Source of the DNA: Takakia lepidozioides
Taxonomy: Eukaryota; Plantae; Bryophyta
Assembly: GCA_030704615.1 (NCBI GenBank)
Contig: JAKLZA010000010.1
Span: 1-64,000 of the forward strand
DNA: 64,000 nt
Direction of reading: 5' to 3'
The notes below the pieces were generated by a model that made no database searches, was not told where the DNA came from, and saw nothing but the letters and a program-made list of their open reading frames with translations. Made by a program: the position numbers and the translations under genes. Of this stretch, positions 1 to 57,120 are shown in pieces (position 1 is the stretch's first letter; each line of letters starts with the position of its first letter).

Positions 1-1
1 C

Positions 2-1129
2 CCGTTGTTGGCCAGCAAATGAAGGGAGAGACCCCTGCATTTGAGGTCCTCTCTGCCCTTCCCTGAGCTTCACCTGAGCCCCCTTGTTGCCTTGAGCACG
101 TTGAGGTAGTGGTTGGCTAGGAGCACCACTACCCCGTGGTGTCTCCTTAGCAAATCCCACCATGACCACTCGTTCCTCCACCATGTTGAGCTCTATCCGC
201 TCTGCCAGCAAAAACACATTTGCTAAGGTGGGTTGGGCCGCTTGTAGGAGAGTTGCATCCCGCACCCTTCTCCTCAGCTCCTTGTCCAATATCCCATACC
301 AGAATTGGACTGCCTGAGCTTCCGTAACCCCTTGGGTTACATTTATCAAGCGCCTCATGCGAGTGAAAGCCTCCCTCAAGCTCTCGGTCGGCTTCCGTTG
401 GAACTCTTGCAAGCTCCGCAACTTCTCTGTCCTCACCCCTTGGTAGTTCCCTCTCAACTCTTCGAAGAACTCCACAACAGGGTTGAAGGCAGGCACGGGT
501 GCTAGTGCTGGTGCGGTAGTGGCTTGGGTGGACGTCGTAGCTACTGTACCACCAGTCCCACTGCTGCTTGATGAAGCTGCCGGTGCAGCGGCAGGTGTAG
601 CCACTGCCCTCGTGGCTCTAGTGCCCCTAGTGATGGAGACATAGTCGGGTGACCAGTACATCCTCCACTCCTCGATCTCAACCTCATGCCCCCGCCTGAA
701 CTCATGGTAATCATCCATAGGCGGCCCCTCAAGGTGCTGAAACAGCCCTTTCCATGCCATGAACGGCGTAAATAGTTGTGGATTGCGCATTTGCTGCAAA
801 TCACACCAACTATCAAACTCTTGGATAAAATCATCCAACTCAATGGTGCCCACCGCCCTAGAGTACCTTCGTGGCCCCTTGGTAGCTCCATACATCTCCT
901 CCATTGTGTCCCACAATAATGGCAAAGAAACAACTTGCACCGCCGGTATGAGCCCTCCTGATTCACAATCCGAATCAGAACCTTCCGTGGAAGACACAGG
1001 AGGTGAAGGTGGCCTAAACCGCACACCTCGTCTCGTGTACCGACTAGTATCGCTAGTGCTCGAACCGGCACTGTCCCCAGCAACTAGTGGCACCTCTGTG
1101 TTGACACTCAACCGGTCATGAACATGTCC
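2..1129 (-). CDS. gag: Gag (capsid) of family A Ty3/Gypsy element; runs off the left edge of the window
   Basis: Not in the ORF track (open-ended). Manual translation is stop-free from 1129 to 2, first ATG at 904: ...ELDDFIQEFDSWCD...LQEFQRKPTESLREAFTRMRRLI...QFWYGILDKELRRRV... It ends in LREGQRGPQMQGSLPSFAGQQR, matching the start of ORF 5143; bases 1-67 are the reverse complement of ~5149-5215. Confidence 0.85.
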
Positions 1130-1374
1130 CTAACCCCCTCTCCACAAGGTAACCGGGTAGAGAACCTGTTGCGGCTTATGGTTTGGAATACTAAGTTCCT
1201 AACATAGCCTACACCTGAACTTGCATGACCATGGGAATATCATGAAGATACTCCTCAAACCGCCCTCCACGAGCTTCAAAATTTGGCCTTCCAGACCACA
1301 TGCCAGTCCTTAGTCCACCAGTGCCTCCACGAGTCAGCACAGGCCATCCACAGGTCAACACGGGCCACCACAGA

Positions 1375-3460
1375 CCAGCACAGGCCCACACAGCTCACTG
1401 GTCACAGCCGTCACAGTCCCACAGGCCACTGGGCACAGCCTGTCACAGCCCCTCACAGCTCGTCACAGCCTCAAAGGCCTCAGGCACAGCTAGTCACAGC
1501 CCCTCACAGCCCGTCACAGCCCCAAAGGCCTCAGGCGCGGCCCCTCACAGCCCCTCACAGCCCCAAAGGCCATGGGCACGGCCTGTCACAGCCCCTCACA
1601 GCCCGTCACAGCCTCAAAGGCCTCAGGCACGGCCTGTCACAGCCCATCACAGCCCCAAAGGCCTCAGGCACGGCCTGTCACAGCCCCTCACAGCCCGTCA
1701 CAGCCCCAAAGGCCTCAGGCGCGGCCTGTCACAGCCCGTCACAGCCCCAAAGGCCATGGGCACGGCCTGTCACAGCCCCTCACAGCCCCTCACAGCCTCA
1801 AAGGCCTCAGGCACGGCCTGTCACAGCCCCTCACAGCCCGTCACAGCCCCAAAGGCCATGGGCACGGCCCGTCACAGCCCGTCACAGCCTCAAAGGCCTC
1901 AGGCACGGCCTGTCACAGCCCATCACAGCCCCAAAGGCCTCAGGCACAGCCTGTCACAGCCTGTCACAGCCCATCACAGCCCCAAAGGCCTCAGGCGCGG
2001 CCTGTCACAGCCCCTCACAGCCCGTCACAGCCCCAAAGGCCATGGGCACGGCCTGTCACAGCCCCTCACAGCCCGTCACAGCCTCAAAGGCCTCAGGCAC
2101 GGCCTGTCACAGCCCCTCACAGCCCCTCACAGCCCCTCACAGCCTCAAAGGCCTCAGGCACGGCCTGTCACAGCCCCTCACAGCCCGTCACAACCCCAAA
2201 GGCCTCAGGCACGGCCTGTCACAGCCCCTCACAGCCCATCACAGCCCCAAAGGCCTCAGGCACGGCCTGTCACAGCCCCTCACAGCCCGTCACAGCCTCA
2301 AAGGCCTCAGGCACGGCCTGTCACAGCCCCTCTCAGCTCGTCACAGCCCCAAAGGCCTCAGGCACGGCCTGTCACAGCCCCTCACAGCCCGTCACAGCCC
2401 CAAAGGCCTCAGGCACGGCCTGTCACAGCCCCTCTCAGCCCGTCACAGCCCCAAAGGCCTCGGGCACGGCCTGTCACAGCCCCTCACAGCCCGTCACAGC
2501 CCCAAAGGCCATGGGCACGGCCTGTCACAGCCCGTCACAGCCCGTCACAGCCGCAAAGGCCTCAGGCACGGCCTGTCACAGCCCCACAGGCCTCAGGGCA
2601 CAGCCCATCACAGCCCCAAAGGCCACTGGGCACAGCCTGTCACAGCCTGACACAGCCCGTCACAGCCCCACAGGGCACAGGGCACAGCCTGTCACAGCCC
2701 ATCACAGCCTCAAAGGCCTCAGGCACGGCCTGTCACAGCCCCTCACAGCCCATCACAGCCCCAAAGGCCATGGGCACAGCCCGTCACAGCCCCACAGGCC
2801 TCGGGGCACAGCCTGTCACAGCCCCGCACAGCCCGTCACAGCCCCAAAAGGCCACTGGGCACAGCCTGTCACAGCCTGACACAGCCCGTCACAGCCCCAC
2901 AGGGCACAGGGCACAGCCTGTCACAGCTTGCCACAGCCTGTCACAGCCCGTCACAGCCCGTCACAGCCGCAAAGGCCTCAGGCACGGCCTGTCACAGCCC
3001 CTCACAGCCCATCACAGCCCCAAAGGCCATGGGCACAGCCTGTCACAGCCCGTCACAGCCCCACAGGCCTCAGGGCACAGCCTGTCACAGCCCCGCACAG
3101 CCCGTCACAGCCCGTCACAGCCCCACAGGGCACAGGGCACAGCCTATCACAGCCCATCACAGCCCATCACAGCCTCAAAGGCCTCAGGCACGGCCTATCA
3201 CAGCCCCTTACAGCCCATCACAGCCCCAAAGGCCATGGGCACAGCCTGTCACAGCCCGTCACAGCCCCACAGGCCTCAGGGCACAGCCTGTCACAGCCCC
3301 GCACAGCCCGTCACAGCCCCGAAAGGCCACTGGGCACAGCCTGTCACAGCCTGACACAGCCCGTCACAGCCCCACAGGGCACAGGGCACAGCCTGTCACA
3401 GCCCATCACAGCCTGTCACAGCTTGCCACAGCCCGTCACAGCCCGTCACAGCCCCACACA
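1375..3460. repeat. Tandem array of 10-bp TCACAGCCC(G/C/A) units with higher-order ~40-50 bp units (CCAAAGGCCTCAGGCACGGCCTG) in the family A 5' leader
   Basis: Directly visible; lies upstream of the minus-strand gag. Confidence 0.95.
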
Positions 3461-4645
3461 TGGCCGCTCTGGCAGTTTAGCCATTTCTCCAAGGGGTTTA
3501 GCCACGCCAAGCTAGGGTTTGTGTCTCTTGGACTCTAGGCTTCTTTCCACCGAGCTATGGTGGCTGTGAGGAAATCAGCAAGGTATCCTTGCTCTTTCGG
3601 CTCCCACACACCACCATAGTAGCCCTAAGCCATGAGGTGGTTGCCACAAACCAAGCCTTCTTTCTCACTTAGCCTACCCAAACATGCCACTAAACTCAAT
3701 GGCAAACAACCAAGCCCTGCTGGTTCCCAGCCCTTGTGAGCACTCATTCAAGCACTCTCCTTGGCCATAGCATCTGTCTTAGAGCCTCGTCCAGCCCCCT
3801 ACACCTGCTGCTTCAAGAGTTGCGCTCCCTTCAAGCTTGAAGTTGAAACCCCAACTCAAATAGGCCCTACAAGTGCTTTTCTTTCACTCCAAGTGGAAAC
3901 CAGCCCTAGACCTTCCGTTCTAGCTCTCTAAAGCTTGAAAACAAGAGCCTCAATGGGCTGAAGGCATGCTCCAGACATGCCCCACTCTCACCATAAAAGA
4001 ATCAGCTCCTTTGCTTCATTTCTTGCACCCACAAACCTGAAAATACAAGCTTCAGCATGCTGAAAGCATGCTCCACATGCCCTACAGGGAAACCAGCCCC
4101 TTCCTTCCTTTCTTGCACTCCCACACCTGAAAGTGCAAGCCTTCACCAGGCTGATAGCATGCTCCACACATGCATTGCCCTCACATAAGGGAAGTCAGCC
4201 CTTCCTCTTCCTTGCTTGCCCTCCAAGCTTGAAGATGGAAGCTCAATGAGCTGAATACATGCTCCACACATGCAACCTCTTCACACAAGAGATATCAGCC
4301 CCCTATCTTGGCTCCTTGGCTCCTTGATGCTCTCTAAGACAAGACTAAGCACTCCATAGCCTTTGCCAAGCTCCTGAAACCCTAAGGCTTACATTTCCAG
4401 CCACAAGACACTTCTCTTGTGGTGCAAGAGCTCTTCTTCCAAGCTCTGTAACCCTAGGTGCACATTCCATGGCCTTGCCGCACCTCTTAGCTCCTGTTCC
4501 AGCCCTGCTCTCGCCATGACAAGAGCCCTCTCAATGCTGAAGCTCGAGATTGAAACCCAATCTCACCATACTCCACAAAGTGCACTGATTTGCCCCAAGC
4601 CAAATCAGCCCTTTCGCTTGGTCTTGCAATCCTTCACACAATGAC

Positions 4646-5152
4646 AGCTCGCATTCCCAAGTCCAGTTCTCAGCTTTGCCACCAAAGCCACTATAACCTG
4701 CTCTTGACTGGTCCTCTTCCCAATCGTGCTTGCTCATGCATGTACACAATCTGAAACCATCAAGGTGCTCTGGAATTACCTACAGTATGGTGCTTTCATC
4801 TCTGAAGCTGAAGATCGAATGCCAAGGTTTACCACCTCGTAACCCACATCGCCTCCACTTCTAACAACCAAGAGCTCCACGGTGCTCCTTGCATAACAAC
4901 TTGGTTTATCTCATTCTCAAGCAAAAACCACAAGTGCTACAACTAACTCGTATCTAGCACTCATAGATACGAGCTCATCTTTCTCGAGTGATAAAGAAGA
5001 AGAATACAAGCACAAGCTCATGCGAACTCACAAAGCTGAAGCATAAACTCATGCATATATAACCTCATCACTCAAATACAAGTCAAGCCAAGTGCACCCC
5101 ACGCCATGGGGAATCCACACTACGGCGCCATAGCTAGGCGCGGTGAGGCTCA
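4646..5152. repeat. 507-bp direct repeat, copy 1 (LTR/terminal sequence of family A)
   Basis: Matches 11686-12192 with 3 substitutions seen by eye. Confidence 0.92.
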
Positions 5153-8100
5153 GGGAAGGGCAGAGAGGACCTCAAATGCAGGGGTCTCTCCCTTCATTTG
5201 CTGGCCAACAACGGGCGGATGTGGTGTGCTGGACATGTGGAGGACCCCATGTCAAGAAGGATTGCCCAGAGGGAGGCAAAGGGTCGGCACATGCACAGCC
5301 TGCACAGTTGCAGTGTGGGCATTGTGGCAAGCACGGGCATGGAGAGGCCCAGTGTTATAGTTTGCATCCTGAGTTGCGCCCAGGCCAGTTCCAAGGGAAC
5401 AATGGTGGCCGGGGGCGAGGTGGAGCAGCCCAGAGAGGACAAGGTGGCCAGCCACGAGGTGCAGGCCAAGGGCAAGCTCAACGTGGCCAAGGACGCGGAG
5501 GTCAGGGTGTTGACCAAGGCATGGCCAACCGGCTTCAGCAGCTAGAGCAGAGGCTCGCTGCCATGGCTACAGCTCAGGTGGTACCGGCTCTAAGGCCGGA
5601 TGGTCCACCTCCTGCTCCTGAGGGAGGAGATATGGGAGGCATGGGATTCATGTGTGGAGCAGCACTACCACTAGTGCAGGTGGAGTCTGCTGCAGCCGTG
5701 ACTCGAGGAGCAGCACGAGTTCCTGAGCCACGAGGTGCAGAGGTGGAGTTGGATCCACAGCGTGGGGAGGCAAGCCGTCAGGCTAGGCTTCCTCAGTCAT
5801 TCACATTGGCGGAGACAGTGTCGACGCCACCCATGGCACCTAGTTCTCGCCCGACTATTACCGAGGCGGAGGTTACTATGCCATTGGGGAGAGCTACACG
5901 GGCAGCACCACTACCTAGTGTTGCCAAGGCTACGGCAGCTAGTGTGTTGTTAGGAGCGGCCACATCTGTGTGCCAGGCTCCATTGTTCTCGGCTACCATG
6001 ATTGCGACGCCGGGGATAAGACCAGCTGAGGTGTTCAGGCTGGCAGCTACACTCTGTGAGAGTGGGGAGGTTACTTCATCTTCTGCAGAGATAGTGGGAG
6101 GTGTAGTGCCGGAGGGATCCTCGGATTTGAGGGTCAAGACTGCCACGGCGGCGCCATGGCAAGCTGCAGCTGCCAGGTTGATGGAGTTGCCAGCTAGGCC
6201 AGCCATTGAGCGCGCCATGGTGACACTTGGAGTTGTCATGTTAGACAACCAGGATGGCATTTTCTGTTTGAGTGGACCGGCAGGCAAGAGGTACCGGCCA
6301 CTGCGAGTCTTGTTGGACTCGGGAGCTCAGCCACTGATGCTGGGCAGAGCTGCTATTGCAGGCTTGGGCCTCACGGAGGCGGATATGGAGCCTTGTCCTT
6401 TCCAGATACAGACGTCTCTGGGAGGATCAGAGCAGGCTCGGGGCATGACACGGCATGAGTTGGCTATCAGACTACGGCCGGATCACCCTACAGATGGCTC
6501 AATGATGCGAGCCAAGGCCATTGTGACAGACGCAGTCTCATACGATGTCCTGGTTGGTGGGGCAGTGTTGTACCCCATGGGCTTCACCCTGGATTTTTGG
6601 GAGGAGTCAGCTTCCTATAGGCCTGCATGGCAGTCAGGGGAGGGCCGGCATGTGCAGCTCCCTGTGACGTTCATAGGAGGAGTTGCGGTTGCCCAGCGAG
6701 GCAAGATGCCGACACTAGCAGCATTCACAGCGGCAGTGAGTTGGCCTAGAGAGTTGCTTGAGGGCAATGCTCATTCAGAGGATGTACAACCTCCGGGAGA
6801 GCAGGATGACATGTATGGTATGGCGGAGTTGCCTACCATGGTTGCTCAGACTCCATTGTGGGGCACGAGCAAGGATTTGCAGCGGGATGCTGATCGACGG
6901 GTGCAACAAGCCTGGGTGGAGGCTTTTGTACCGTCAGGAGAGGAGGAGAGTGTGGGGATTGCACCAGGACCACCTCAATTGTCTCCATTGGACACCACAC
7001 CTATTGTGTGGCAGTCTCCGGATGAAGGCATTTGTCTTCTGGACTTGTTTGGCGGGATCAGCACCGGATTGGCTGCTGTGTTACAGGCAGGTGTACGAGT
7101 TCGGCGTTACCTGTATGTGGAGAGGGATGAGACTGCACGACGCGTTTCACTTCGCCATGTTGCTCAATTGGTGCAGCGGTACCCTGAGTTGTTGTCGGTG
7201 TCTGCAATTCGTGGATATCAGCAGGCCTTGCCAGCAGACATTTCGTTGCTGGGGGCGCAGGATTTGGAGCGGGTTGGCTCCATTGATCTGGTAGTGGCAG
7301 GTTGGCCCTGCCAAGGGCATTCATCAGCCGGGCATGGCAATGGATTGCAAGACTCGAGGTCGGGTCTGTTTTGGGAGATGGTGCGGGTTTTGCGCCACTT
7401 GCAGCTTCATCAAGCTGTATCTCCAGCATACATCTTGGAGAATGTGCCACTGATGGGCGATTCTCGGGCCAGGGTGATGGCCAGTGTGCATCAAGTCCGG
7501 TCGTGGCTTGGGTCAAAAGTGTTGCTAGATGCAGCTACAGTGGGGTCACGGGCTCATCGTCCACGGCTATGGTGGACTAACATGATGCCACCCGCACTGC
7601 TCAAGCGTGCATTTGATGGGGTGCAGCGGCCAGCACATCTCACAGTGGATAACATTCTAGACACAGGGAGGCAGTCTCAACGTGTGAGACACGATGACCG
7701 TTCGCCTTTGGCAGTGGTCAACAAGGTGGGTCAACCACGAGCAGCATTACCTACACTGCTCAGGATCGCATGCTTTCCGGGATAGTGGACCTGGCCTCCT
7801 GCGGGATGCTCAGTTGCAGCAGTTAGTGGAGCCTAATGCTGACGAGCGTGAGCGGGCAATGGGTTTTACCACTGGTACCACGGCGGTGTCGTCTCTTTCT
7901 GAGGCATCACGTCGTCAAGTGTTGGGGCAAGCAATGGATCTCAATTGCTTGACCTGGATTATCAGCTTGGCTCTAGCTGAGCAACGCAGAGTGCGGAATA
8001 CACTTCCTTCAATGGTCTCTCTGCCTACCGAGACGGTACAGGCAGTGAGTGGGGGCGAGCATATGAGGACCACGGGGTGCATGCATCCATGGCACACGTG

Positions 8101-8269
8101 GGAGGTGCTCGAGGTTCAGAGGGAGTTGGCAGCCAAGGCGGCTGTGATGGATGAGGTTGGGGATTCTTCTCGAGTTGAGGAGGTCCTCAAGGATGAGATG
8201 ATGGGGCAGGATGATGCCTTGTCATTGACTGAGCAGGTAGGGAGTACTGCTCAAGAGGTTGCAGCATAG
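5143..8269 (+). pseudogene. Gag C-terminus (2 CCHC knuckles) - aspartic protease - C5 cytosine DNA methyltransferase; one frameshift at ~7762
   Basis: CWTCGGPHVKKDC and CGHCGKHGHGEAQC knuckles; protease VLLDSGA...YDVLVG; then the DNMT domain. ORFs 5143-7785 and 7694-8269 are joined by a small deletion relative to copy A2. Confidence 0.9.
7030..7980 (+). other. DNMT3-like cytosine-5 methyltransferase catalytic domain
   Basis: Motif I LDLFGGI (~7039), II YVERD, III DI, IV DLVVAGWPCQG (catalytic Cys 7309-7311), V SGLFWE, VI ILENV (7438), VIII AHRPRLWWTN (7558), IX ERERAMGF, X RRQVLGQAMD (~7922), all in canonical order. Confidence 0.93.
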
Positions 8270-8275
8270 CAACCA
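8267..8275 (+). promoter_or_regulatory. Putative leaky stop / read-through signal TAG CAA CCA
   Basis: In frame with upstream DNMT and downstream RT; matches UAG-CAR-YYA; identical in copy A2 (40365-40357, -). Confidence 0.65.
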
Positions 8276-11200
8276 CGGGACGCGTCCTCTACCTCTAAGC
8301 CCACTGGACTTAAGGTTGTAGTTACGGAGGACAATTGGGAGCCTGACATTGGACCCATTGTCACCGGAGGAGAGAGACGACGTATACGGCGGTTCCTGAG
8401 GGCTTACAGGAATTGCTTTGCCTTCAGTTTGAAGGACTTGGGAGCACTGAAGGGTCAAGAGATCCGTATTGAGTTGGCCACTGACACGCCAATCTTTCGG
8501 AGACCCTATAGATACAGTGACATGGAGAGGTCTTTGATTCAGATGAGGACTCAAGATCTCTGGGAGGCAGGTTTGGTGGAGCTCTCTGGTGGAGAGTATG
8601 CTTCAGCCACAGTGATGCCAGCCAAGAAGGATGTCTATGGCAATTGGACGGAGAGACGTATGTGCGGTGATTACCGGCCTGTAAATCGTCAGACCAAGTC
8701 CGATAAGTATGCCATGCCAACACCAGAGGAGATCTTTGATGCCATCGGGCATGCTAAGGCCTTTAGCACTTTGGATTTACGATCCGGATATCACCAGTTG
8801 CCAATCAAGGAGGCGGACAAGCAGAAGACGGCATTCTGGGGGATCAATGAGCACGGCAAGGATTGCCTATATCAGTGGCGGTTCTTACCATTTGGGCTTA
8901 AGAATGCTCCTGCAGAGTTTCAGAGAGTCATGGATAGGATTCTAGCAGGGGTGGACTTTGCTCGGTGCTACATAGATAACATCATCATCTTTAGTGTTAC
9001 GATGGAGGAGCATGAGAGACACCTTCAGGTGGTATTGGAGCGCTTGAGAGCGCACGGATTGAAGTTGCATCCGGGGAAGTGCAAGTTTTTCCACAACCAG
9101 ATTGAGTATCTGGGTCACATGATATATTCTGGAGGATTGGGGGTACAGCAGACTAAGGTAGAGGCCATTGCACAAATCCCACGCCCCACGGATGTGAGCC
9201 GAGTTCGAGCTTTCATGGGGTTGGCAAACTATTATAGACGGTTTGTCAAGGGATTTAGTACCATTGCAAAGGCTCTAACCAAGCTGACCAAGGTGGACCA
9301 GGAGTGGCAGTGGGAAGATGAGCAGGAACGAGCTTTTCAAGAGCTCAAGGCGAGGTTGACCTCGGCGCCTATCTTGAGACGACCTATCAGGGGGCGTCCC
9401 TTTCAGCTGCATACGGATTGGAGCATGCTGGGGCTTGGAGCGGTGCTCACACAGGTGGATGATGAGGGAAGAGAGTTCGTAGTGGCTTACGCTAGCCGCT
9501 CGAACAACGCTGCAGAGGCTAAGTACAGCTCATATGAGGGAGAGTGCTTAGCTGCAGTGTGGGCCGTGGCACACTTCAGGTGCTATCTATACGGCAATCT
9601 TTTCACCCTTGTCACGGATCACCAGCCACTCAAGTGGTTGATGGAGTCAGACAAGCTTACGGGGAAGCTTGCACGGTGGGCACTTATACTCCAGGAGTAT
9701 GACTTTCAGCTTGTGCATCGACCAGGTTTGGTCAATCGGGATGCGGATGGATTGAGTCGCAATCCATGCAGGAGCCAGCAGGATGACACTGGAGCTCGGT
9801 GGCATGGTGAGACGGACGAGGAGATGGTGCCGAGGAGATGGTGCCGGGATGGCACGCATCTGCATTTTTGTGTATCTTGGCATGGGGAGGTCATATTGGA
9901 CCTACAATAGGGATGACTGTAGACGGAGTGTCTGAGGACCCTGAGGCTAGTGATGAGCTAGGTGGTGCCAGAGATATACATGAGGATTCGGCTGTGTTGG
10001 ACTACCTCCGCACGGGAGACACGGCAGCCATTGTGACTGCCAGGGAGAGGGATCGGATCCTGCAACGAGCCAAGAGGTTCAAATGGGAGGGGATACACCT
10101 ACTTCGAGTGTGGGAGAGTGGTCGGGTGAGGATTGTGCCTCACCCCACACAGCGTGCACGGTTAGTGCGGCATGCCCATGAGGAGTTGGGGCATTTTGGA
10201 GTGCGACGCACTCACAGTTTACTGCAGGGGCAGTATTGGTGGCGTGGTATGCATACAGAGGTGCAACAGTTTGTGGCTAGGTGCATGGTGTGTGACAAGG
10301 TGCGTGCTTTGTTTAACGCCCCTACACCACAGTTGCATCCTTTACCTATCATGGGATTGGGCTACAGATGGAGTCTTGACTTCGCAGGACCGTTGCCACT
10401 GACTATGCGCCACCACAGATATGTGTTGGTGATGGTGGAGCACTTCTCCAAGTGGATTGAGTTGGTTCCATTGCCTGACAAGGCTAGTGAGGGGGCTGCG
10501 TATGCATTCTTGGATCGTGTGCTTAGCCGATTTGGTGCTCCAGCTGAGGTACTCACGGACCAAGGGAGAGAGTTCTTGGGGGAGTTTCAGGATTTGTGTG
10601 ATAAAGCCTTGATAGACCACCGCACCACTTCTCGGGATCATCCTGAGGCCGATGGCTTAGCAGAGAGAGTTGTTCAGACGGTGAAGAGGGGTTTGCGCAA
10701 GTATGGCTTGCAGAAGGGACACCTAGGAGATTGGGATCTTCAGGTTCCTTGGTTAGCCATGGGCTACAGGTTCAGCAAACAAGCATCACTTGCCTCCTTC
10801 TCACCATATTTCCTTCTCTTTGGCCGAGAGCCGGATTTGCCTGCAGCCATTCGTAGGGACACTGCTCAAGTCCTTAACCTTGACGATCCGGACGTGTGGG
10901 TACGTGCATGTGATCAGCATGCAGAGTTGGTCAAGAAAGTCATGCCCATGGCTTTTGAGAACCTTGCCATTGCACAGCACCGTGATACGTTGAGGTATGC
11001 CACTATACGTGGTGGAGGATATCGTCCTGGGGTTCGGAGGTTTAGCCCTGGTGACTATGTTTATTTGTAGCAGACTGCTCCTACGACTCTGGATGTTACT
11101 GCAGGGCGTGTTATTCTGAGGGTTCGAGAGGTGTTGCCCTCAGGGGTCCTGATCTTGGAGGGTCGGGATGGCATGACTTGGAAGGACCATGTGCGTAATT

Positions 11201-11418
11201 GTGCGCCATGTCACCTTCCCAATGTCGATGGCAGAGTTGACCCAAACTTGGCAGTGGTACCTGCAGGTTTGAGGTGCATGCTCTGTGGGTCTGCCAAAGG
11301 GGCAGCCACCATGCTGGTGTGTGATCGGTGCTCAAGGGGTTGGCATATGGGATGCTTGACACCACCTCTTGAGAAGGTTCCTGACGGAGATTGGTTGTGT
11401 CCACACTGCTTGGGATAG
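8270..11418 (+). pseudogene. pol: Pol: RT - RNase H - integrase - C-terminal PHD finger
   Basis: RT RMCGDYR, LPFGLKNAP, YIDN (YIDD in A2); RH LHTDWS, YEGECLA, TDH; INT H-H-C-C, WSLDF, TDQGREF, DGLAER. Lesions: 14-bp tandem duplication 9818-9845 (frameshift) and TAG at 11068 (CAG in A2). Confidence 0.95.
11275..11410 (+). other. PHD finger (C4HC3) fused to integrase C-terminus
   Basis: CMLCGSAKGAATMLVCDRCSRGWHMGCLTPPLEKVPDGDWLCPHC; in frame with integrase. Confidence 0.93.
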
Positions 11419-11667
11419 TGGCAGTGGACATGACTGGAGGCAGCTAACAAGACATGGGAGGCCAAGCTCATAGGAGTCAATACATGAGATCCCAAGCTCA
11501 AGTTCACAGGTTGCAAGACGGCGACTAACGATGGGGCAACTCTTGCACCCAGCCTCTTGATCTATCGAGTTTGAGTGTAGTAGGGATAGTGGTGGAGGAC
11601 TTAGTGAGGCTATGGTCACTATCACATCTTGTGGCTACCTGGACTTAGAGGGACCTAAGCACCAGCT

Positions 11668-11678
11668 AGGGGGGCGAT
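11668..11678 (+). promoter_or_regulatory. Polypurine tract of A1
   Basis: AGGGGGGCGAT directly followed by TGTG; A2 has GGGGGCGAT|TGTGG at the equivalent site (~36977-36969, -). Confidence 0.7.
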
Positions 11679-12355
11679 TGTGTGGAGCTCGCATTCCCAA
11701 GTCCAGTTCTCAGCTTTGCCACCAAAGCCACTATAACCTGCTCTTGACTGGTCCTCTTCCCAATCGTGCTTGCTCATGCATGTACACAATCTGAAACCAT
11801 CAAGGTGCTCTGGAATTACCTACAGTATGGTGCTTTCATCTCTGAAGCTGAAGATCGAATGCCAAGGTTTACCACCTCGTAACCCACATCGCCTCCGCTT
11901 CTAACAACCAAGAGCTCCACGGTGCTCCTTGCATAACAACTTGGTTTCTCTCATTCTCAAGCAAAAACCACAAGTGCTACAACTAACTCGTATCTAGCAC
12001 TCATAGATACGAGCTCATCTTTCTCGAGTGATAAAGAAGAAGAATACAAGCACAAGCTCATGCGAGCTCACAAAGCTGAAGCATAAACTCATGCATATAT
12101 AACCTCATCACTCAAATACAAGTCAAGCCAAGTGCACCCCACGCCATGGGGAATCCACACTACGGCGCCATAGCTAGGCGCGGTGAGGCTCAACTCGAGA
12201 AAGATGAGCCTCCCGCGCTTGCCGTGAAGATAACCACTCCAGGGCCTAAATCTGCCTTGACCCCTGGATTGACACTTGGGCCAATCCCAAATGTCAATAT
12301 GTAAAAGCTAGCTATTTCCTAGCTAGTTTCACACTAGTGGTAAAATAACTTGACA
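11679..12355. repeat. Family A LTR/terminal block (TG...CA), orientation ambiguous
   Basis: Contains the second 507-bp repeat. Its 3' part (12186-12355) is homologous to 36709-36883. It ends ...TAACTTGACA where the family B accessory ORF is interrupted. Confidence 0.7.
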
Positions 12356-13348
12356 CCCTTCTTTCTCCAAATCAATTATTTCTGGTGGAACTGCATGGAC
12401 AACTTGTGGTAACTCTGTGACAAGCCGATCATCTGGCTGTGATGGCTGTGATACTGAAGTAACTTCCTCTTCCCTCTCTGAAGGTCCCGCTTTCAATAAT
12501 AGCAGTTTTTTGTGCTGCTGTGCCCCTTCCTGCACAAGAGCTTGGGAAACATTATCATGCGGTTTCCGTGAAGCCAGTGGATCCGCCACTATAGTCTTTC
12601 CCCGCCTCTGTCTCTTAGTCTGGGGTTGCCCTGCCAGTCCACCCTCACTGTGTGAAGAGCCTTGCTCTTCCATTGCAGTGGTTTCAGTCTCAAACACTCC
12701 CATCTCGTTTCTTTCTCGAGCATCAAGTATGCCAGAATCAAGAATTATTTGAGCAATGATTGGGCCAGACACTATGATAGGAGACTTTGCGGCAGTGCCC
12801 TGTAATCTTTTCATCTCCTCTACCAGTGCATTGTACATTATGTCCGCCCATTCTACCTCTTCTCCTCTCAGGGCTTTGAGTATTTCCTCTGTGAAGGATC
12901 TGCTCAAATACTGTTGGTTCTGTTTCATGGCAAATAGAACGTTCAATACCTGGCCTATCTCCCTTAGCCCTGGGTACACGGCCTTGGTACAAGCATAAGC
13001 CTGAGTTTTAAAGAAACTCCCTTCTTGGAATAAGTCCCCTATTTGCAGTCTTGCCCTGTGCTCCTCCACATGCACCTGGCCTGTTGGCAATCGAAACAAT
13101 TGCTGTAGGTATAGGGGAGTAATTTCTAATTCAACTCCCTTCACCGTTGTTGCTCCTGTCCTAGGCTCAAAGTTCTGCAAGAATTGTAACATGTACTATC
13201 TATGGTGCAATGTCCAATCTTTGCTTTGCAATCCTTCCAATCGCAGCTCCTTCAGTAACTTTACCGCCTGTGGAGTAGCAATCGTTTGTTTCTGCAGGAT
13301 TGTGGTGCTCTTCACCCTGATTTCTTCCATTCCTCTCACTCTCTTCAT
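12356..13348 (-). pseudogene. 3' accessory ORF of family B (plant transposon protein / Transposase_32-like)
   Basis: DWTLHHR*YMLQFLQNFEPRTGATTVKGVELEITPLYLQQLFRLP...GEEVEWA; homologous to ORF at 33887-34721; in-frame stop at 13196-13198; truncated at 12356. Confidence 0.6.
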
Positions 13349-14059
13349 TCTAGACCCACAGAAAGGTTTTGGCTGTAACAATTGAAGAAATGCCTGCAGG
13401 GCACAAAGCATAAACGTATGGTTGCCACAAAATGCTACGGGTAATTTCTTGTAAGCCTGCGGGGCTTGCAAGCATCGATCAAGAGAAAAGATTCGCTCTG
13501 TTCTTCTGTCCCTATGCCACTGCGTAAGTAATATTGCGAGCGTATAGTTTGTTGGTTCCTCCATAGCTTCAAAGCTATAGCATTGATGGTTTGTCCCGTC
13601 AAGACGCCCGTTACTTAGAACGACGCCGACTCTTGCGCTTAAATTCCCTCCAATTTCTTGATCCCTTTTCTGGCTTTCGATTGGCTGTAACCGCTGTGAC
13701 TGGATTTTAGATTTAATTTTCTTTAGTGGACTTTCCCTGCTGGACTGTCCACTAGGATAACACATGTGACAAGAATTTTGCTTTTCTGTACTTGCCGTTT
13801 GTTCTGTTGCCCTTTTTCCGTATTCATTAATGGGCCCGCCATTCATCCGAATTGATGTGCTAAGTAGGTATTTTGACGGCCATTCTTGTCCTCTTTCTTG
13901 ATGACACCTGTTCTTGCACTTCCTTCTCAGCTGTGTGTTGCGCCCTGACTTCCACGTGTCCCTTTCTAAACTGGCTTCCGTCCTTTCTTCTGCCGGCCAT
14001 TTCCCTGAAGTTATCATGCGTCCACCTGTCACTGATTCTATGGATTGTGTAACCCTACT

Positions 14060-14300
14060 AGACTATGTTGAGCTGTGACAGGCTGTGTCATACTGTGGTA
14101 CGCTGTGATAGGCTGTGTTGCACTGTGGTAAGCTGTGATACGCTGTGATACGCTGTGGTAGGTTGTGATAGGCTGTATTGCACCGTGTTGGGCTGTGATA
14201 TGCTGTGTCGCGCCTTGCTGGGCTGCGATAGGCTGTGTCGCGTCGTGCTGGGCTGTGATAGGCTGTGTCACGTCGTGATGGGCTGTGATAGGCTGTGTCG
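14060..14300. repeat. 10/30-bp GCTGTGATAG (TCACAGCC-type) repeats at the end of the B1 integrase
   Basis: Visible; same as 63110-63440. Confidence 0.9.
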
Positions 14301-15548
14301 CTCTTGTTTAGCCCGCCCTGGTCATATATGCTCAGCTTAGCGACAAGTGCTCCATACTCCGTTGGTATCACTGGCGCCGCCCGTGACTGCTTTTGCGTTT
14401 CAACATGCAAATCATGCTGCAATGGTTTGTCATTGATACCACTGTACCCCTTCAACTTATTGGCATTGACTCTTCCCAGCATCTCTTTGTTAATGGTTTG
14501 TAACATGGCGGTGTTGTTATCATACATCTTCTGTATGACATAAGATCATTTCCATGGTGATTTAAGCTTAGAAGCTTTAATCTTTCCCTTCTTCTGCAAC
14601 CATAGAACCAAATCTCCCATCTTAAAAGTCTTTATCTTGCCTTCATCAAACTGTTCCTTTCTTTTCATCTGAATTCTGGTCATGTTATCAGCTGCATCAG
14701 CACGTACTTCTTCCACATGGTATAATTCATGTTTCCTGACCTTAATGGAATCTTGCAATTTCATTGTCTTTCCCCATTCCGTTCTCATGGTAGGTAACAG
14801 GAATTCCACTGGAAGTAAAGCTTTCATACCATAAACTAATTGGAATGGTGTATACTTAGTGGTGACTTTATATGAAGTCATGTATGACCACAAAGCTGTC
14901 AGCAGCTTTGTATCCCAATCCGTTCTGTTTGCATTGACTATCTTAGCCAAGATAGTACATAGTATTTTGTTGGTAGCCTCTGCCTGCCCATTACCCTGTG
15001 GGTAATATGTTGTACTCTTCCTATGCACAATCATGAACTCTTTAGTCAATAATTCAATGGTCTCATTAATGAAGTGACTTCCCTGATCACTGATAAATTC
15101 CAAGGGACAGCCAAATCGTGTAAGTATGTTCTCATACAGGAACCTTGCTGTGGACTTGGTTGTGTTGTCCCTCAAAGCTTTAGCTTCCACCCACTTCGTA
15201 GTATAATCAGTGGCTGTAATTATGTACCTGTTCTGTGTATTCTTGGCTGGTGGGTTAATTGGTCCAACAAAGTCTAGTCCCCATTTCTGAAATGGTTCCG
15301 TAGGCATTGTAGGATGCAAAGCCATCTTCCCAGATCTCTGCAAAGGTCCTAGCCTCTGACATTCATCACAACTCTGACAATACTTGTGTACATCTTTGAA
15401 CAAAGTAGGCCACCAGTAACCTGCATGTAGTATCTTCCTGCTGGTAGTCTCTTCTCCAAAATGACCTCCTGCCACTCCTTTATGAACTTCCTCCAAAACT
15501 TTATTAACTTCATGGTGGTATAAGCATCGCTTCAGCACTCCATCTGGT
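14063..15548 (-). pseudogene. pol: Integrase of B1 (3' part of pol, after MULE insertion)
   Basis: H-H-C-C, WGLDF, SDQGSHF, GQAE; near-identical to 61870-63500. Confidence 0.93.
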
Positions 15549-15711
15549 GGGGGCTGCTATTTCATGAGCGGCATGAGCATGAGCAGAAAAAAAAAAAACA
15601 TGAGCAGACCATTGTAAGTCCACGGAAATAGGGTTAGGAGGCACGGAAATAGGGTCATGTGAAGTTGGAATGTGGCACCAGTGGACTTGAAATGCAACAT
15701 TTTATTGCATT

Positions 15712-20700: not shown

Positions 20701-20976
20701 CCGGCTTCTCCCCTTCAGCCGTCATCATCCGGACGGCCCCCCACTTTCTGACTGCATACCGTTGGCAGTTATTGCGCAAAGACCAGGGGCCGCATTCCGG
20801 AGACAAGGTTCATTAACACTCTGACTGTGGATTTTTGAGATAGTTGGCTCCCTGGATTTGGATCAGGCTTCATCGCTCGGACAAATCGGCATCGCATTCA
20901 TTCCCATCGCTGCATCCCCCTTCTACCAGGGAGCTTCCCCGCACTCCATCCTGGGAGTCTTGTGTGTACATCTCCC

Positions 20977-23064: not shown

Positions 23065-23510
23065 GTGAGTTGCACGTCTGAAAATGCTAAGTCCGAACTG
23101 GCTAAGTCCGAACATGCACTGGAAAAATGGCGCTGAATTACCTGTCATGAGGGGACCTATAGCCGCGGAATTCGTTCCCATTTTTCGCCAGAGAGACCTA
23201 TTACCGCGAAATACATCGCCGTTTTTCAGGTTACGGACCCTATTACCGCGAAATTCGGCGCCATATTTGCACATGTCGCTGGGAATTGGCATGAGCGGAA
23301 GACGAAATATCATGAGCACAACTGTCAAAAGTGCAATTTTCCCTTCAAGGGGCCGATTAATATATTTGTTTTTCCTGACACATTGCATTAAATTATTGTT
23401 TTTTATTGTTTTTTATTTTCGAAATTTGTACTTCTGCTCATGAAAACCGATTGTGTTACTACTCTGCTCATGCCGCTCATGCCGCTCATGCTCATGAAAT
23501 AGCAAACCTC

Positions 23511-28413: not shown

Positions 28414-28434
28414 GTCCCATGTCTTTCATTTCTT

Positions 28435-36443: not shown

Positions 36444-36968
36444 TGTCGTGCGCATACGTATCGCTACACAACTACATCGCTGTCCAAACCACCCCACACA
36501 TATATGCACAATAAGTAGTCTGCCACAATGATAAGAAAAGCTAAAAACACACTGTTCACACAAGAAACAACATGAATCCAACAGCATCACTCGTTAAAAC
36601 AAAAGTCGAGCCAGGGGCACCCCAAGCTGTGGGGACTCCACCCCACAGCAACCTACACTCCCATCATGAGCACACTCAGTCCTAAACGATGCAGGAGCTC
36701 GGTCGCGCAGGCTCAACTCGAGAGAGATGAGCTGCGCGACTGCCGCTCTCGTGAAGATAAGACGGGTTAGGTGTCAAACTAAACTTGACACCTGATTTAA
36801 CACTTGACCTAAATCCAAGTGTTAAATACAAATAACTAGCTTTATTCTAGCTAGTTTCACACTGTGCTTATTTAACTTGAAACTGTCGTGCGCATACGTA
36901 TCGCTACACAACTACATCGCTGTCCAAACCACACCACACATATATGCACAATAAAGTAGTCTGCCACA
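36444..36968 (-). repeat. 3' terminal block of A2: ~85-bp repeat - ~355-bp segment - ~85-bp repeat
   Basis: 36444-36529 is nearly identical to 36884-36970; the second abuts the PPT. Confidence 0.8.
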
Positions 36969-39900
36969 ATCGCCCCCATAGCTGGTGGATAGGTCCCTCT
37001 AACTCCAGATAGCTACAAGATATAATAGCCACAGCCGTACTAAGTCCTCTATCACTATCCCTATCGTGCTCAAAATCTATCAACCAAGAGGCCAGGTACA
37101 GAAGTAGCCCATCGTTAGTCGCCGTCTTGCAATCTGTGAACTTGAGCCAAGATCTCGTGTGTTCAAGGTCTCCTGTAGCTTGGCCTTGCATTTCTTGTTA
37201 GCCTTCCATGGTTGTATCCACTCCCACTATCCAATGCAATGTGGACATAACCAATCCCCATCCGGAACCATCTCAAGAGGTGGAGTCAAGCATCCCATAT
37301 GCAACATCTAGAGCATCGATCACAACACCAGCATGTGGTGCCCCTCTAGCAGCCCACACAACATGCACCTCAAACCTAACACACAACCCGCAAACCTGCA
37401 GATACCACTGCCAGGTTTGGTCAATCCTGCCATCAACATCGGAAGGTGACATGGCGCACAATTACGCACATGGTCCTTCCAAGTTATGCCATCCCGACCC
37501 TCCAAGACCAAGACGCCTGAGGGCAAGACCTCTCGAACCCTCAAAATAACACATCCTGCAGTCACATCCAAAGTCGTAGGAGCAGTCTGCTGTAGATAGA
37601 CATAGTCACCAGGGTGAATCTCCGAACCCCAGGACGATAGCCCCCACCACGTATGGTCGCATACCTCAACGTATCACGGTGTTGTGCAATGGCAAGGTTC
37701 TCGAAAGCCATGGGCACGACTTTCTTGAACAACTCTGCACGCTGCTCACATGCACGTGCCCACACGTCCGGATCGTCAAGGTTAAGAACTATAGCAGCTT
37801 CTCTGCGAATGGATGTAGGCAAATCCGGCTCTCGGCCAAAGAGAAGAAAGTATGGTGAGAAGGAGGCAAGTGATGCTTGCTTGCTGAACCTGTAGCCCAT
37901 GGCTAACCAGGGTAACTGAAGGTCCCAATCTCCTAGGTGTCCCTTCTGCAAGCCATACTGCGCAAACCCCCTTTTACTGTCTGAACAACTCTCTCTGCCG
38001 AGCCATCGGCCTCAGGATGATCCCGAGAAGTGGTGCGGTGGTCTATCAAGGCCTTATCACACAAAGCCTGAAACTCCCCCAAGAACTCTCTGTCCGTGAG
38101 TACCTCAGCTGGAGCACCAAATCGGCTAAGCACCAATCCAAGAGATGCATACGCAGCTCCTCACTAGCCTTATCAGGCAATGGAACCAATTCAATCCACT
38201 TGGAGAAGTGCTCCACCATCACCAACACGTACTTGTTGTGGTGCATGGTCAGTGGCAACGGCCCTGCGAAGTCAAGACTCCACCTGTAGCCCAATCCCAT
38301 GATCGGAAGAGGGTGCAATTGTGGAGTAGGGCCGTTGAATGAAGCACGCACCCTGTCACACACCATGCACCTAGCCACAAATTGTTGCACCTCTGTGTGC
38401 ATACCACGCCACCAATACTGCCCCTGCAGTAGACTATGAGTGCGTCGCACCCAAAATGCCCCAACTCCCATGGGCATGCCGCACTAACCGTGCCCGCTGT
38501 GTGGGTGAGGCACAATCCTCACTCGACCATCCTCCCACACTCGGAGCAGGTGTGTCCCCTCCCACTTGAACCTCTTGGCTCGTTGTAGGATCCGATCCCT
38601 CTCCTGGCAGTCACAGTGACTGCCGTGTCTCCAGTGCGGAGGTAGTCCAACACAACTGAATCCTCATGTATATCTTTGGCGCCACCTTGCTCATTGCTGG
38701 CCTCAGGGTCCTCAGACACTTGATCTACAGTCATCCCTGTCGAAGGTCCAACCTGGCCTTCCGTTGCCAAGATACACAGAAATGTAGATGCATGCCATCC
38801 GGGCACCATCTCCTCGTCCGTCTCACACATGCCACCGAGCTCCAGTGTCATCCTGTTGGCTCGTGCATGGATTGCGACTCAACCCATCTGCATTGCGATT
38901 GACCAAACCCGGTCGATGCACCACCTGAAAGTCATACTCTTGAAGGATGAGTGCCCACCGTGCAAGCTTCCCCGTAAGCTTGTCTGACTCCATCAACCCA
39001 TTGAGTGGTTGGTGATCCGTAACAAGGGTGAAGAGATTGCCGTATAGATAGCACCTGAAGTGTGCCACGGCCCACACTGCAGCTAAGCATTCTCCCTCAT
39101 ATGAGCTATACTTAGACTCTGCAGCGTTGTTCGAGCGGCTAGCATAAGCCACTACGAACTCTCTTCCCTCATCATCCACCTGTGTGAGCACCGCTCCAAG
39201 CCCCAGCATGCTCCAATCTGTATGCAGCTGAAAAGGACACCCCCTGATAGGTCGTCTCAAGATGGGCGCCGAGGTCAACCTGCCTTGAGCTCTTGAAAAA
39301 GCTTGTTCTTGCTTATCTTCCCACTGCCACTCCTGGTCCACCTTGGTCAGCTTGGTTAGAGTCTTGCAATGGCACTAAATCCCTTAAAAAACCGTCTGTA
39401 ATAGTTTGCTAACCCCATGAAAGCTCAAACTGGCTCACATCCGTGGGGCGTGGAACCTGTGCAATGGACTCTACCTTAGTCTGCTGTACCCCCAATCCTC
39501 CAGGATATATCATGTGACCCAGATACTCAATCTGGTTGTGGAAAAACTTGCACTTGCCCGGATGTAACTTCAATCCGTGCGTCCTCAAGCGCTCAAATAC
39601 CCCCTGAAGGTGTCTCTCATGCTCCTCCACCGTAGCACTAAAGATGATGATGTCATCTATATAGCACCGAGCAAACTCCACCCCTGCTATAGAATCCTGT
39701 CCATGACTCTTTGAAACTCAGCGGGAGGGTTTTTAAGCCCAAATGGTAAGAACCGCCACTGGTATAGGCAATCCTCCCGTGCTCATTGATCCCCCAGAAT
39801 GCCGTCTTTTGCTTATCTGCCTCTTTGATCGGCAACTGGCAATATCCGGATCGTAAATCCAGAGTGCTAAAGACCTTGGCATGCCCAATGGCATCAAAGA

Positions 39901-42000
39901 TCTCCTCTGGTGTGGGCATGGCATACCTATCGGACTTGGTCTGACGATTTACAGGCCGGTAATCACCGCACATACGTCTCTCCGTCCAATTGCCATAGAC
40001 ATCCTTCTTGGCTGGCATCACTGTGGCTGAAGCATACTCTCCACCAGAGAGCTCCACCAAACCTGCCTCCAGAGATCTTGAGTCCTCATCTGAATCAAAG
40101 ACCTCTCCATGTCACTGTATCTATAGGGTCTCCGAAAGATTGGCGTGTCAGTGGCCAACTCAATACGGATCTCTTGACCCTTCAGTGCTCCCAAGTCCTT
40201 CAAACTGAAGGCAAAGCAATTCTTGTAAGCCCTCAGGAACCGCCGCATACGTCATCTCTCTCCTCCGGTGACAATGGGTCCAATGTCAGGCTCCCAATTG
40301 TCCTCCGTAACTGCAACCTTAAGTCCAGTGGGCTTAGAGGTAGAGGACGCGTCCCATGGTTGCTATGCTGCAATTTCTTGAGCAGTACTCCCTTCCTGCT
40401 CAGTCAATGACAAGGCCTCATCCTGCCCCATCATCTCATCATTGAGAACCTCCTCAACCCGAGAAGAATCCCCAACCTTATCCATCACAGCTGCCTTGGC
40501 TGCCAACTCCCTCTGAACCTCGAGCCACCTCCCACGTGTGCCATGGATGTCTACACCCTGTGGTCCTCACGGCTCGCCCCCACTCGCTGCCTGTACCGTC
40601 TCGGTAGGCAGAGAGACCATGAAGGGGAGTGCACTCCGCACTCTACGTTGCTCAGCCATAGCCAAGCTGATAATCCAGGTCAAGCAATTGAGATCCATTG
40701 CTTGCCCCAACACTTGACGCCGTGATGCCGTGATGCCTCAGAAAGAGAAGGCACCGCCGTGCGTGTCCCAGTGGAAAACCCCATAGCCCGCTCTCGCTCG
40801 TCGGCATTAGGCTCCACTAACTGCTGCAACTGAGCATCCCACAGGAGGCCAGGTCCACCATCCCGAAAAGCATGGGATCCTGGAAGCTGAGCAGTGTAGG
40901 TAATGCTGCTCGTGGTTGACCCACCCTGTTTACCACTGCCAAAGGCGAACGGTCATCGTGTCTCACACGTTGAGACTGCCTCCCTGTGTCCAAAATGCCA
41001 TCACGGTGAGGTGAGGTGTGCTGGCCGCTGCACCCCATCAAATGCACGCTTGAGTAGTGCGGGTGGCATCAAGTTAGTCCACCAAAGCCGTGGACGATGA
41101 GCCCGTGACCCCACGCAGCTGCATCCAGCAACACTGCTGACCCAACCCACGACCGGACTTGATGCACACTGGCCATCACCCTGGCCCAAGAATCACCCAT
41201 CAGTGGCACATTCTCCAAGATGTATGCTGGGAGATATAGCTTGATGAAGCTTGCTGCAAGTAGCGCAAAATCCGCACCATCTCCCAAAATAGACCCGTCC
41301 TCGAGTCTCGCAATCCATTGCCATGCCCGGTTGATGAATGCCCTTGGCAGGGCCAACCTGCCACTACCAGATCAATGGAGCCAACCTGCTCCAAATCCTG
41401 CCCCCCAGCAAGGAAATGTCTGCTGGCAAGGCTTATTGGTATCCACGAACTGCAGACACTGGCAACAAGTCAGGGTTATTGCTGTACCAACTGAGCAACA
41501 TGGCGCAGTGAGACGCGTCGTGCAGTCTCATCCCTCTCCACATACAGGTAACGTCGAACTGTATACACCTGCCTCACAGCACTGCAGCCAATCTAGTGCT
41601 GATCCCGCCAAACAAGTCCAGAAGGCATATGCCTTCATCCGGGCACTGCCGAAAGCTTCTACCCAAGCTTGTTGCACCCGTCCATCAGCAGCCTGCTGCA
41701 AATCCTTGCTCGTACCCCACAATGGAGTGTGAGCAACCATGGCAGGCAACTCCGCCATACCATGCAAGTCATCCTCGCTCTGCTGGAGGTGGCAATCCTT
41801 TGCATGGGCATTGCCTCAGCAACTCTCCAGGCCAACTAACTGCAGCTGTAAAGGCGGCTAGTGTTGGCATCTTGCCCCGCTGGGCAGCCGCTATACCCCC
41901 CAATGAATGTCACAGGGAGCTGTGCACGGCGACCATCGCCTGACTGCCATCCAGGCCTGTAGGATGCTGACTCCTCCCAAAAGTCCAGGGTGAAGCCTAT
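36444..42000 (-). mobile_element. Family A copy A2 (PR end-DNMT-RT-RH-INT-PHD), many 1-bp indels, cut by assembly gap
   Basis: SIDLVVAGWPCQG (~41341-41380), YILENVP, AHRPRLWWTN, CYIDDII, WSLDFAGP, PHD remnants ~37230-37370; colinear with ~6580-11682. Confidence 0.92.
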
Positions 42001-57098: not shown

Positions 57099-57120
57099 AA
57101 AGAAATGAAAGACATGGGAC

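Follow-up and report, generated by a model that had tools for sequence, protein, structure and literature searches.

Decayed copies of a land-plant Gypsy-DNMT3 retrotransposon in Takakia lepidozioides, with a methyltransferase likely made at the Gag level

Retrotransposons encoding their own DNMT3-like cytosine DNA methyltransferase (DNMT) are known from Symbiodinium and Klebsormidium, as a preliminary description of the locus studied here had noted (de Mendoza et al., 2018) and as PMC5890265, which describes both, bears out. We analyzed a window of 64,000 nucleotides from the bryophyte Takakia lepidozioides (GenBank assembly GCA_030704615.1, contig JAKLZA010000010.1, positions 1 to 64,000 of the forward strand), which contains partial copies, designated A1, A2, and A3, of a Ty3/Gypsy retrotransposon family of this kind. 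KnitGypsy-Dnmt3 of Klebsormidium has an unrearranged, intronless DNMT3-like domain under purifying selection (Ka/Ks below 0.2) within a Gypsy polyprotein ordered protease (PR)-DNMT-reverse transcriptase (RT)-RNase H (RH)-integrase (IN), and a DIRS-like repeat layout that is given in a figure legend, with no mechanism stated in the available text (PMC5890265). The Takakia element shares these features, and trees of RT and of DNMT place it in the same clade. It differs in its land-plant hosts and in the location of the DNMT, which open reading frame 1 (ORF1) carries ahead of a leaky-type stop; the available text of PMC5890265 puts it in the Pol ORF instead. Because this conserved in-frame stop parts the DNMT from RT, the two being joined only by predicted readthrough, we file the element as a variant within the KnitGypsy-Dnmt3 clade. 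On balance, we lean slightly toward reading the copies in the window as the decayed remains of a land-plant element of this clade (also called Gypsy-DNMT3), whose enzyme is likely made at the Gag level, likely packed into particles, and likely methylates the element's own new DNA.

SymbioDIRS-Dnmt3 of Symbiodinium likewise combines a retrotransposon DNMT3, which methylates CG de novo in yeast, with A-coding-B-A-B repeats (PMC5890265). It is of independent origin and is a tyrosine-recombinase DIRS element, whereas the present family has a DDE integrase and target site duplications (TSDs). The EpiLTRs of Cymbomonas and Euglena are long terminal repeat (LTR) elements with methyltransferase writers and a histone reader (bioRxiv 10.64898/2026.05.21.726589); they combine DAM, a DNMT4-like enzyme, and a chromodomain, in contrast to the DNMT3-like domain and PHD finger, with no DAM, found here. 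One 1417-residue protein in our set, P0045, joins a C5-methyltransferase to a Dam domain and is EpiLTR-like. REM1 of Chlamydomonas has an antisense PHD ORF. In Gypsy-7a_cRei, also of Chlamydomonas, a PHD in a green-lineage Gypsy element has been proposed to steer insertion, and no DNMT is listed for Gypsy-7a in the portion of the source available (bioRxiv 2022.06.16.496473); PHD-transposon fusions have been reported broadly (bioRxiv 2021.11.30.470311). Chromoviruses carry a chromodomain (PMC6317226) where this family has a PHD. Tf1/Sushi and plant Tcn1 elements resemble it in a primer-binding site (PBS) that pairs with their own 5' repeat and not with a tRNA (PMC6317226), but they carry chromodomains and ordinary LTR ends.

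Streptophyte Gypsy-DNMT3 elements are mentioned, without land plants being named in the parts available, in PMC12344493 and bioRxiv 10.64898/2026.05.21.726589. In the accessible text, PMC5890265 has no match for Marchantia or PHD, bioRxiv 363937 does not mention the family, and the literature on the REXdb Phygy and Selgy clades mentions neither DNMT nor PHD. The DNMT-bearing Gypsy architecture is already known from Klebsormidium, while the bryophyte family, the readthrough stop that puts DNMT at the Gag level, and circle-type integration with permuted ends are unreported in the literature searched, which left out most subscription journals.

The DNMT3-like domain and its relatives

In A1, a C5-methyltransferase (PF00145, E=9.2e-13) shares the frame at 5134-7785 with an aspartic protease and two zinc knuckles, and Pfam and motif reading identified PR-RT-RH-IN, the Ty3/Gypsy order, and an integrase of the DDE type in the window copies. 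The preliminary description had presented 5143..11418 as a Gypsy retrotransposon with a complete C5-methyltransferase between protease and RT. Its Gypsy domain set is confirmed, and methyltransferase motifs I, IV, VI, VIII, IX, and X all lie where it had put them; however, A1 is an internal piece without 5' gag and not a free-standing element, and the methyltransferase, with its full motif set in the right place, has a broken frame. The domain is intronless and unrearranged and keeps its catalytic residues. The A1 protease shares 57% identity with Marchantia ORF1 and 40% with Klebsormidium KFL_009030040, and aspartyl-protease Pfam matches in the relatives were weak. Pfam scans of the window copies and relatives found no chromodomain at the integrase C-terminus, only the PHD.

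Both sequence and fold put DNMT3A/B first among the possible relatives of the methyltransferase; our trees were built without host DNMT3 sequences. The nearest solved relatives of the A1 domain were DNMT3A (E=7e-10) and then DNMT3B, DRM (1.5e-5), and HhaI (2e-4). An AlphaFold model of P0001, an unbroken relative 76% identical to A1 over the 254 residues queried and mostly with pLDDT >80 in its DNMT part, matched DNMT3A with E=6e-17 and a TM score of 0.82 of the target.

Comparison of A1 with A2 gave ratios of nonsynonymous to synonymous differences (pN/pS) of 0.42 (interval 0.24-0.82) for DNMT motifs I-VIII, 0.20 for motifs IX-X, 0.16 for the PHD, and 0.12-0.18 for RT, RH, and IN (RT 0.18). 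With synonymous sites saturated, the DNMT core (motifs I-VIII) gave 0.25-0.30 against loci L001, L007, L010, and L017 and 0.45 against two distant loci. Values for the spacer at the end of ORF1, for the L001 linker between IN and PHD, and for the PHD of L001 and L007 were left out, as these stretches could not be aligned or ran past the end of the contig; codons were too few for the A2 protease, and Jukes-Cantor-corrected values of 0.00 reflect saturation only. Pro-Cys was intact in 51 and the motif VI Glu in all 54 DNMT domains of the clade with DNMT upstream of RT, the three exceptions being alignment gaps. Neutral decay of the DNMT, a possibility raised in the preliminary description, was not borne out. 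These comparisons point to purifying selection on the DNMT across the family, and the domain is probably active in live copies. Three points weigh against this: the DNMT is less constrained than RT and IN, the interval for the target recognition domain (0.36, 0.04-2.11) spans 1, and the Klebsormidium domain gave no methylation in a yeast test that its authors deemed inconclusive (PMC5890265).

The DNMT search returned 50 proteins, with named matches in Marchantia polymorpha, Calypogeia fissa, and Sphagnum at identities up to 74-77%. The integrase search returned 193 proteins, and most of the 120 listed have a C-terminal PHD; those listed include a Coleochaete scutata transcript with RT-RH-IN-PHD only, Klebsormidium nitens KFL_009030040, and proteins of the chlorophytes Haematococcus, Pleodorina, and Tetrabaena. 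KFL_009030040, which from its species and architecture appears to be a KnitGypsy-Dnmt3 copy, has PR-DNMT-RT-RH-IN in the same order as A1 and is a partial model ending before the PHD position; its close sister P0130 has a PHD. In IQ-TREE analyses of 26 of the 40 elements carrying both domains, hand-chosen to span groups, A1, Marchantia, and Klebsormidium joined at ultrafast bootstrap (UFBoot) values of 100 (RT-RH) and 90-98 (DNMT). Against this grouping, the streptophytes did not form a clade in an RT tree rooted on a distant outgroup; the root branch of that tree is very long, and we read it only as an unrooted split. The sister, chlorophyte-type clade has its DNMT between RNase H and integrase. 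In that clade (P0033-P0219), 36 of 50 DNMT domains are without Pro-Cys, most have W-E-C-Q and ENT instead, and many were missed by Pfam. Judged by the trees, the host of the window would most likely be a bryophyte-grade land plant, although horizontal transfer may have played a part.

These relatives, together with the selection estimates, uphold the proposal that DNMT plus PHD is a propagated family trait. The argument from two diverged copies held for the DNMT motifs of A2 but less so for its PHD, which is degenerate. The combination does occur in land plants, as had been suggested, but the architecture is not new, since the Klebsormidium relative groups with A1 in both trees and the integrase-PHD union is the rule in this clade.

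In the best-matching sequencing runs, about 83,500 contig pieces per run covered all 30 bins of the internal region, DNMT included, so that this is a large and diverse family in the source organism; summed contig depth was taken neither as copy number nor for ranking domains. Viral contigs scanned with the integrase gave four pattern matches and no relatives. Marchantia polymorpha carries the clade in many copies and is a genetic model with methylation mutants that reactivate many transposable elements, offering a tractable host for a question, the role of retrotransposon DNMTs, that has lacked one since 2018. The Marchantia models P0004, P0006, P0051, P0052, P0058, and P0059 (e.g., Mp_4g09160, Mp_8g17980, and Mp_Vg00370) are listed among host genes, as hypothetical proteins or DNA methyltransferases, but represent ORF1 of the present element. 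P0310 (CAA9586175.1), an RT-RH-IN-PHD member labelled "uncultured Synechococcales cyanobacterium," is probably eukaryotic contamination of a bin.

The ORF1/ORF2 stop and the possible roles of DNMT and PHD

We examined 23 ORF1/ORF2 junctions among 33 metagenome loci, A1, and A2; the others end earlier or are rearranged. DNMT and RT do not share one open frame at any of them: all 23 have a single stop (TAG or TAA) in the RT frame, with CAR-YY directly after it, giving the family order Gag-PR-DNMT / stop / RT-RH-IN-PHD. The contexts were TAG-CAA-CCC (10), TAA-CAA-CCC (7), TAG-CAA-CCA (3), TAG-CAG-TTA (2), and TAG-CAA-TCA (1). In L022, exactly one stop lies between frames of 1369 and 1047 codons, and the Marchantia models P0004, P0051, P0058, P0059, and P0006 end at the matching place as Gag-PR-DNMT proteins of 1248-1281 residues. 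CAR YYA after UAG is the signal for readthrough in tobacco mosaic virus, where its efficiency in vivo is about 10% (PMC2754532). The TAG-CAR-YY junction would very probably be read through in a minority of translation events, with Gag-PR-DNMT as the major product and RT-RH-IN-PHD as the minor one. Since the leaky-type stop lies between these two blocks, the DNMT would be made at the Gag level.

Several features of the junctions weigh against readthrough. The full CAR-YYA is present at only 6 of them, and at the remaining 17 CAA-CCC is followed by ATG; these 17 come from one close family, in which several loci are duplicate records of a single insertion, so that the 23 are not independent. Because of this pattern, re-initiation or splicing at the junction may operate. 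In addition, DNMT and RT share one frame in P0118, P0120, P0123, and P0213, Klebsormidium included, and thus a Gag-level DNMT is not universal; since these are Klebsormidium and three other early-branching relatives, DNMT ahead of the stop is a derived variant.

A leaky stop predicts DNMT at capsid-like amounts within particles, and packing of the enzyme into the particle is likely from this arrangement. Self-methylation of cDNA is then plausible, and we regard the odds as even that the DNMT would methylate the element's cDNA before insertion. An alternative that we consider unlikely is that the main substrate of the DNMT is host chromatin (at the target site, at the new insertion, or, in trans, at rival elements) and not particle cDNA. 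Output at the level predicted from the stop would far exceed the need of one cDNA, and Klebsormidium copies bear CHG and CHH methylation (PMC5890265), both of which suit this alternative, but in ORF1 we found PF00145 alone, with no nuclear-targeting or reader domain, and the Klebsormidium methylome is described as not unusual despite such elements (PMC5890265).

Less likely still, the domain may be kept for DNA binding or shielding, such as holding cDNA ends or blocking host enzymes, with catalysis dispensable. The negative yeast result for the Klebsormidium domain would fit such a role, as would the sister clade, in which only 14 of 50 domains have Pro-Cys. The retention of Pro-Cys and Glu in the A1 clade argues otherwise, and even the sister clade keeps the Cys in 48 of 50.

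The PHD after the A1 integrase, as first described, was confirmed by Pfam, and is a canonical finger whose nearest solved matches include CHD4, PHF12, KDM5A/B PHD1, ATXR5, PHF21A, BAZ2, and UHRF1. A Trp two residues before the PHD His is part of the H3K4me3 cage. A1 has no Trp at this site; among the 120 listed relatives, 71 matched the PHD pattern, with Gly in 67, Ala in 3, Pro in 1, and Trp in none. Solved relatives of this kind read unmodified H3 tails. Bryophyte PHDs are without an acidic residue before Cys1, and their K4 specificity is therefore uncertain. The PHD would be made only together with integrase. It is somewhat likely that it stays on integrase and would tether it to histone H3 N-termini, as the chromovirus chromodomain does, independently of the DNMT; PHD-guided targeting is plausible.

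The preliminary description had likened the two domains to the writer and reader that are coupled in animal DNMT3; on that model, the PHD would direct or activate the DNMT in the manner of the ADD domain. Their co-occurrence across the clade, the likeness of the PHD to readers of unmodified H3 tails, and a readthrough product that would briefly hold both together speak for this proposal. We nonetheless consider it very improbable, because DNMT and PHD lie about 1100 codons apart on opposite sides of the leaky-type stop (ORF1 and the end of ORF2) in a polyprotein with its own protease, whose inferred processing would leave them on different mature proteins, and because the finger is a canonical PHD and not an ADD.

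Terminal repeats, priming, and integration

One metagenome locus, L017, is a whole element, arranged A - internal - polypurine tract (PPT) - B - GC - A - AT - B, with TSD AAGG. The same DIRS-like A-coding-B-A-B layout is seen in part in the window, where the A2 3' end is B-A-B and the A3 5' end starts with A. All 7 distinct left ends start with TGTCA and all 5 distinct right ends stop with GACA, and both loci having both ends show 4-bp TSDs (AAGG and CACA).

Directly after the 5' A, a PBS of 15-16 nt is perfectly complementary to a stretch inside A in all three families tested, with a different sequence in each; shuffled sequences reached maxima of 11-12 (11 in 500 shuffles for A3). TATAAA or TATAAT lies 26 nt upstream in two of the three families. 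These features make it quite probable that the RNA has its 5' end within A and acts as its own primer, in the manner of Tf1, to give an ordinary cDNA; with the PBS after A and the PPT before B, reverse transcription should give an LTR of B+A. Against self-priming, among eight closely related 5' ends only three keep the 16-nt complement, two keep 9-10 nt, and three have a mutated PBS.

The integrated form appears to be a circular permutation of such a B+A-LTR cDNA. The A|B joint, present in L017, A2, and 12 contigs, is CA-(A)T-TG, as expected of end-joined cDNA termini. The B|A joint, present in L017, L022, L025, A2, and 22-24 contigs per run, is a conserved near-palindrome, GACA-GY-TGTCA, whose halves are the integrated ends. 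It is reasonably likely that cDNA ends are joined and that integrase would then cut the internal GACA-GY-TGTCA of the resulting 2-LTR circle, or of a head-to-tail dimer, to yield A-internal-B-A-B; on this model the permuted ends predict circles as integration substrates. Three points count against it. The B-A-B end was fully seen in only two genomic copies, and L010 and L011 have single-B ends, which may be assembly collapse or B-by-B recombination. The main caution is that the retroviral counterpart, a circle-precursor model, was proposed, tested, and dropped (PMC11054761). The scrambled copy at L012:5915-13462 (and L013), with inverted pieces and its 3' half deleted, nevertheless begins with A and ends with B between 4-bp TSDs, which would fit insertion of a circle that had been rearranged.

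These ends might instead arise without circle opening, through DIRS/Ngaro-like template jumps or later rearrangement of ordinary LTR insertions, which we consider doubtful. The layout equals that of split-repeat DIRS elements (PMC5890265), and linear cDNA is the proven retroviral precursor (PMC11054761). However, the PBS directly after A and the PPT directly before B define the LTR as B+A, the ends of distinct insertions fall at one internal site with TSDs, and in L017 the two B repeats (104/111) and the two A repeats (313/339) have diverged equally. Moreover, a Pfam scan of the window and relatives found no tyrosine recombinase, the mark of DIRS/Ngaro elements, and an rve integrase with 4-bp TSDs instead.

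Taken with circle opening, the readings above would describe, tentatively, a green-lineage-wide Gypsy class in which a leaky stop loads the particle with DNMT3, the element methylates its cDNA in advance, and a 2-LTR circle is integrated after being cut at an internal att site written into its sequence. If true, the circle-precursor pathway dropped for retroviruses would be the normal route of a DDE-integrase retrotransposon abundant in liverworts and peat mosses. LTR finders that require matching terminal repeats would likely miss such elements.

Copies and rearrangements in the window

Table 1. Positions of A1, A2, and A3 features in the 64,000-nt window
Feature	Positions	Strand	Basis or remark
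A1, inverted internal segment, 3' part of gag to PPT and first 7-8 nt of repeat B	5153..11685	+	Lodged in A3 5' region
A1 Gag CCHC zinc knuckles (two)	5227-5265, 5314-5355	+	Translation
A1 aspartic protease (LLDSGA 6310-6327)	6205..6660	+	Similarity to Marchantia, Klebsormidium
A1 DNMT3-like C5-cytosine methyltransferase, motifs I-X	7027..7987	+	PF00145, motif reading; frameshift near 7762
A1 DNMT motifs I LDLFGG, II, IV GWPCQ, VI LENV	7039-7056, 7114-7128, 7300-7314, 7435-7446	+	
A1 DNMT motifs VIII AHRPRLWW, IX, X LGQAMD	7552-7575, 7832-7867, 7922-7939	+	
A1 in-frame TAG then CAA CCA, predicted ORF1/ORF2 readthrough signal	8267..8275	+	Junction comparison
A1 reverse transcriptase	8270..9124	+	PF00078 E=7e-32
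A1 RNase H	9311..9700	+	PF17917/PF17919
A1 DDE integrase, H2C2 finger, core D-D-E 10372-10677	10144..11070	+	PF17921, PF00665; premature stop 11068
A1 C4HC3 PHD finger, integrase C-terminus	11275..11418	+	PF00628 E=1.5e-11 at about 11275-11409
A1 PPT and truncated start of repeat B	11664..11685	+	Copy comparison
A2, second copy: DNMT motifs 41621-40693, TAG-CAA-CCA at 40365, RT, RH, IN, degenerate PHD	36444..42000	-	
A2 3' end: B1 36968-36884, A 36882-36529, B2 36527-36444	36444..36968	-	B1/B2 identical 83/84 nt
A3 5' terminal repeat A, starts TGTCA, ends TTATCA	12029..12355	-	Inserted in another, unrelated Gypsy element
A3 predicted self-primer (predicted RNA 5' end) within repeat A	12194..12209	-	Perfect 16-bp PBS complement, -27 kcal/mol
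A3 PBS directly after repeat A, no TGG start	12013..12028	-	Complementary to repeat A
A3 gag 5' part, leaves window at left edge	1..904	-	ATG at 904
507-nt duplicate of 11686-12192, 3 mismatches	4646..5152	-	Part of A3 repeat A and 5' untranslated region (UTR)

Neither A1 nor A2 could work, because A1 has frameshifts near 7762 (between motifs VIII and IX) and 9820, the RT catalytic motif YIDN (YIDD in A2), and the stop at 11068, and A2 differs from A1, at about 90% nucleotide identity, by 41 indels, mostly single-base and in 39 cases of a length not divisible by 3. The A2 PHD gave no Pfam match in the one frame scanned. A 500-N scaffold gap at 42001-42500 removes the 5' part of A2, and because A2 adjoins this gap, part of its decay may be assembly or sequencing error.

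The A3 gag is 60% identical to residues 1-298 of Marchantia ORF1, and A1 and A3 are identical at 63/63 nt over their shared stretch. The 507-nt repeats flanking A1 were considered as an LTR pair of A1 and as the LTR of the neighboring Gypsy element, and both were rejected since the sequence is A3 repeat A and UTR. The left joint of A1 has an 11-nt near-match at 5142-5152, and other copies in the sequencing runs continue differently, in the normal way, at 5142 and 11686; A1 within A3 is either a true rearrangement or an assembly chimera.

A young neighboring Gypsy family (12329-15556, 23413-29431, and 56102-63532) has inverted arms 96-99% alike and extra 3' ORFs. It contains 10-bp CACAGCC-type arrays, and similar arrays fill the A3 5' UTR at 1229-3467. 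Observed/expected CpG was 0.51 in A1 (4640-12200) and 0.54 in A2 (36400-41990) compared with 0.24-0.31 in the neighboring Gypsy elements, values that cannot tell self- from host methylation. Two long related ORFs, at 20839-22533 (564 codons) and 44725-46785 (686 codons), are 71% alike over 300 nt and have no Pfam match. Arrays of a 53-bp unit lie at 18180-20081 and 43022-44596, the first forming a large foldback with 732-nt arms 13 nt apart.

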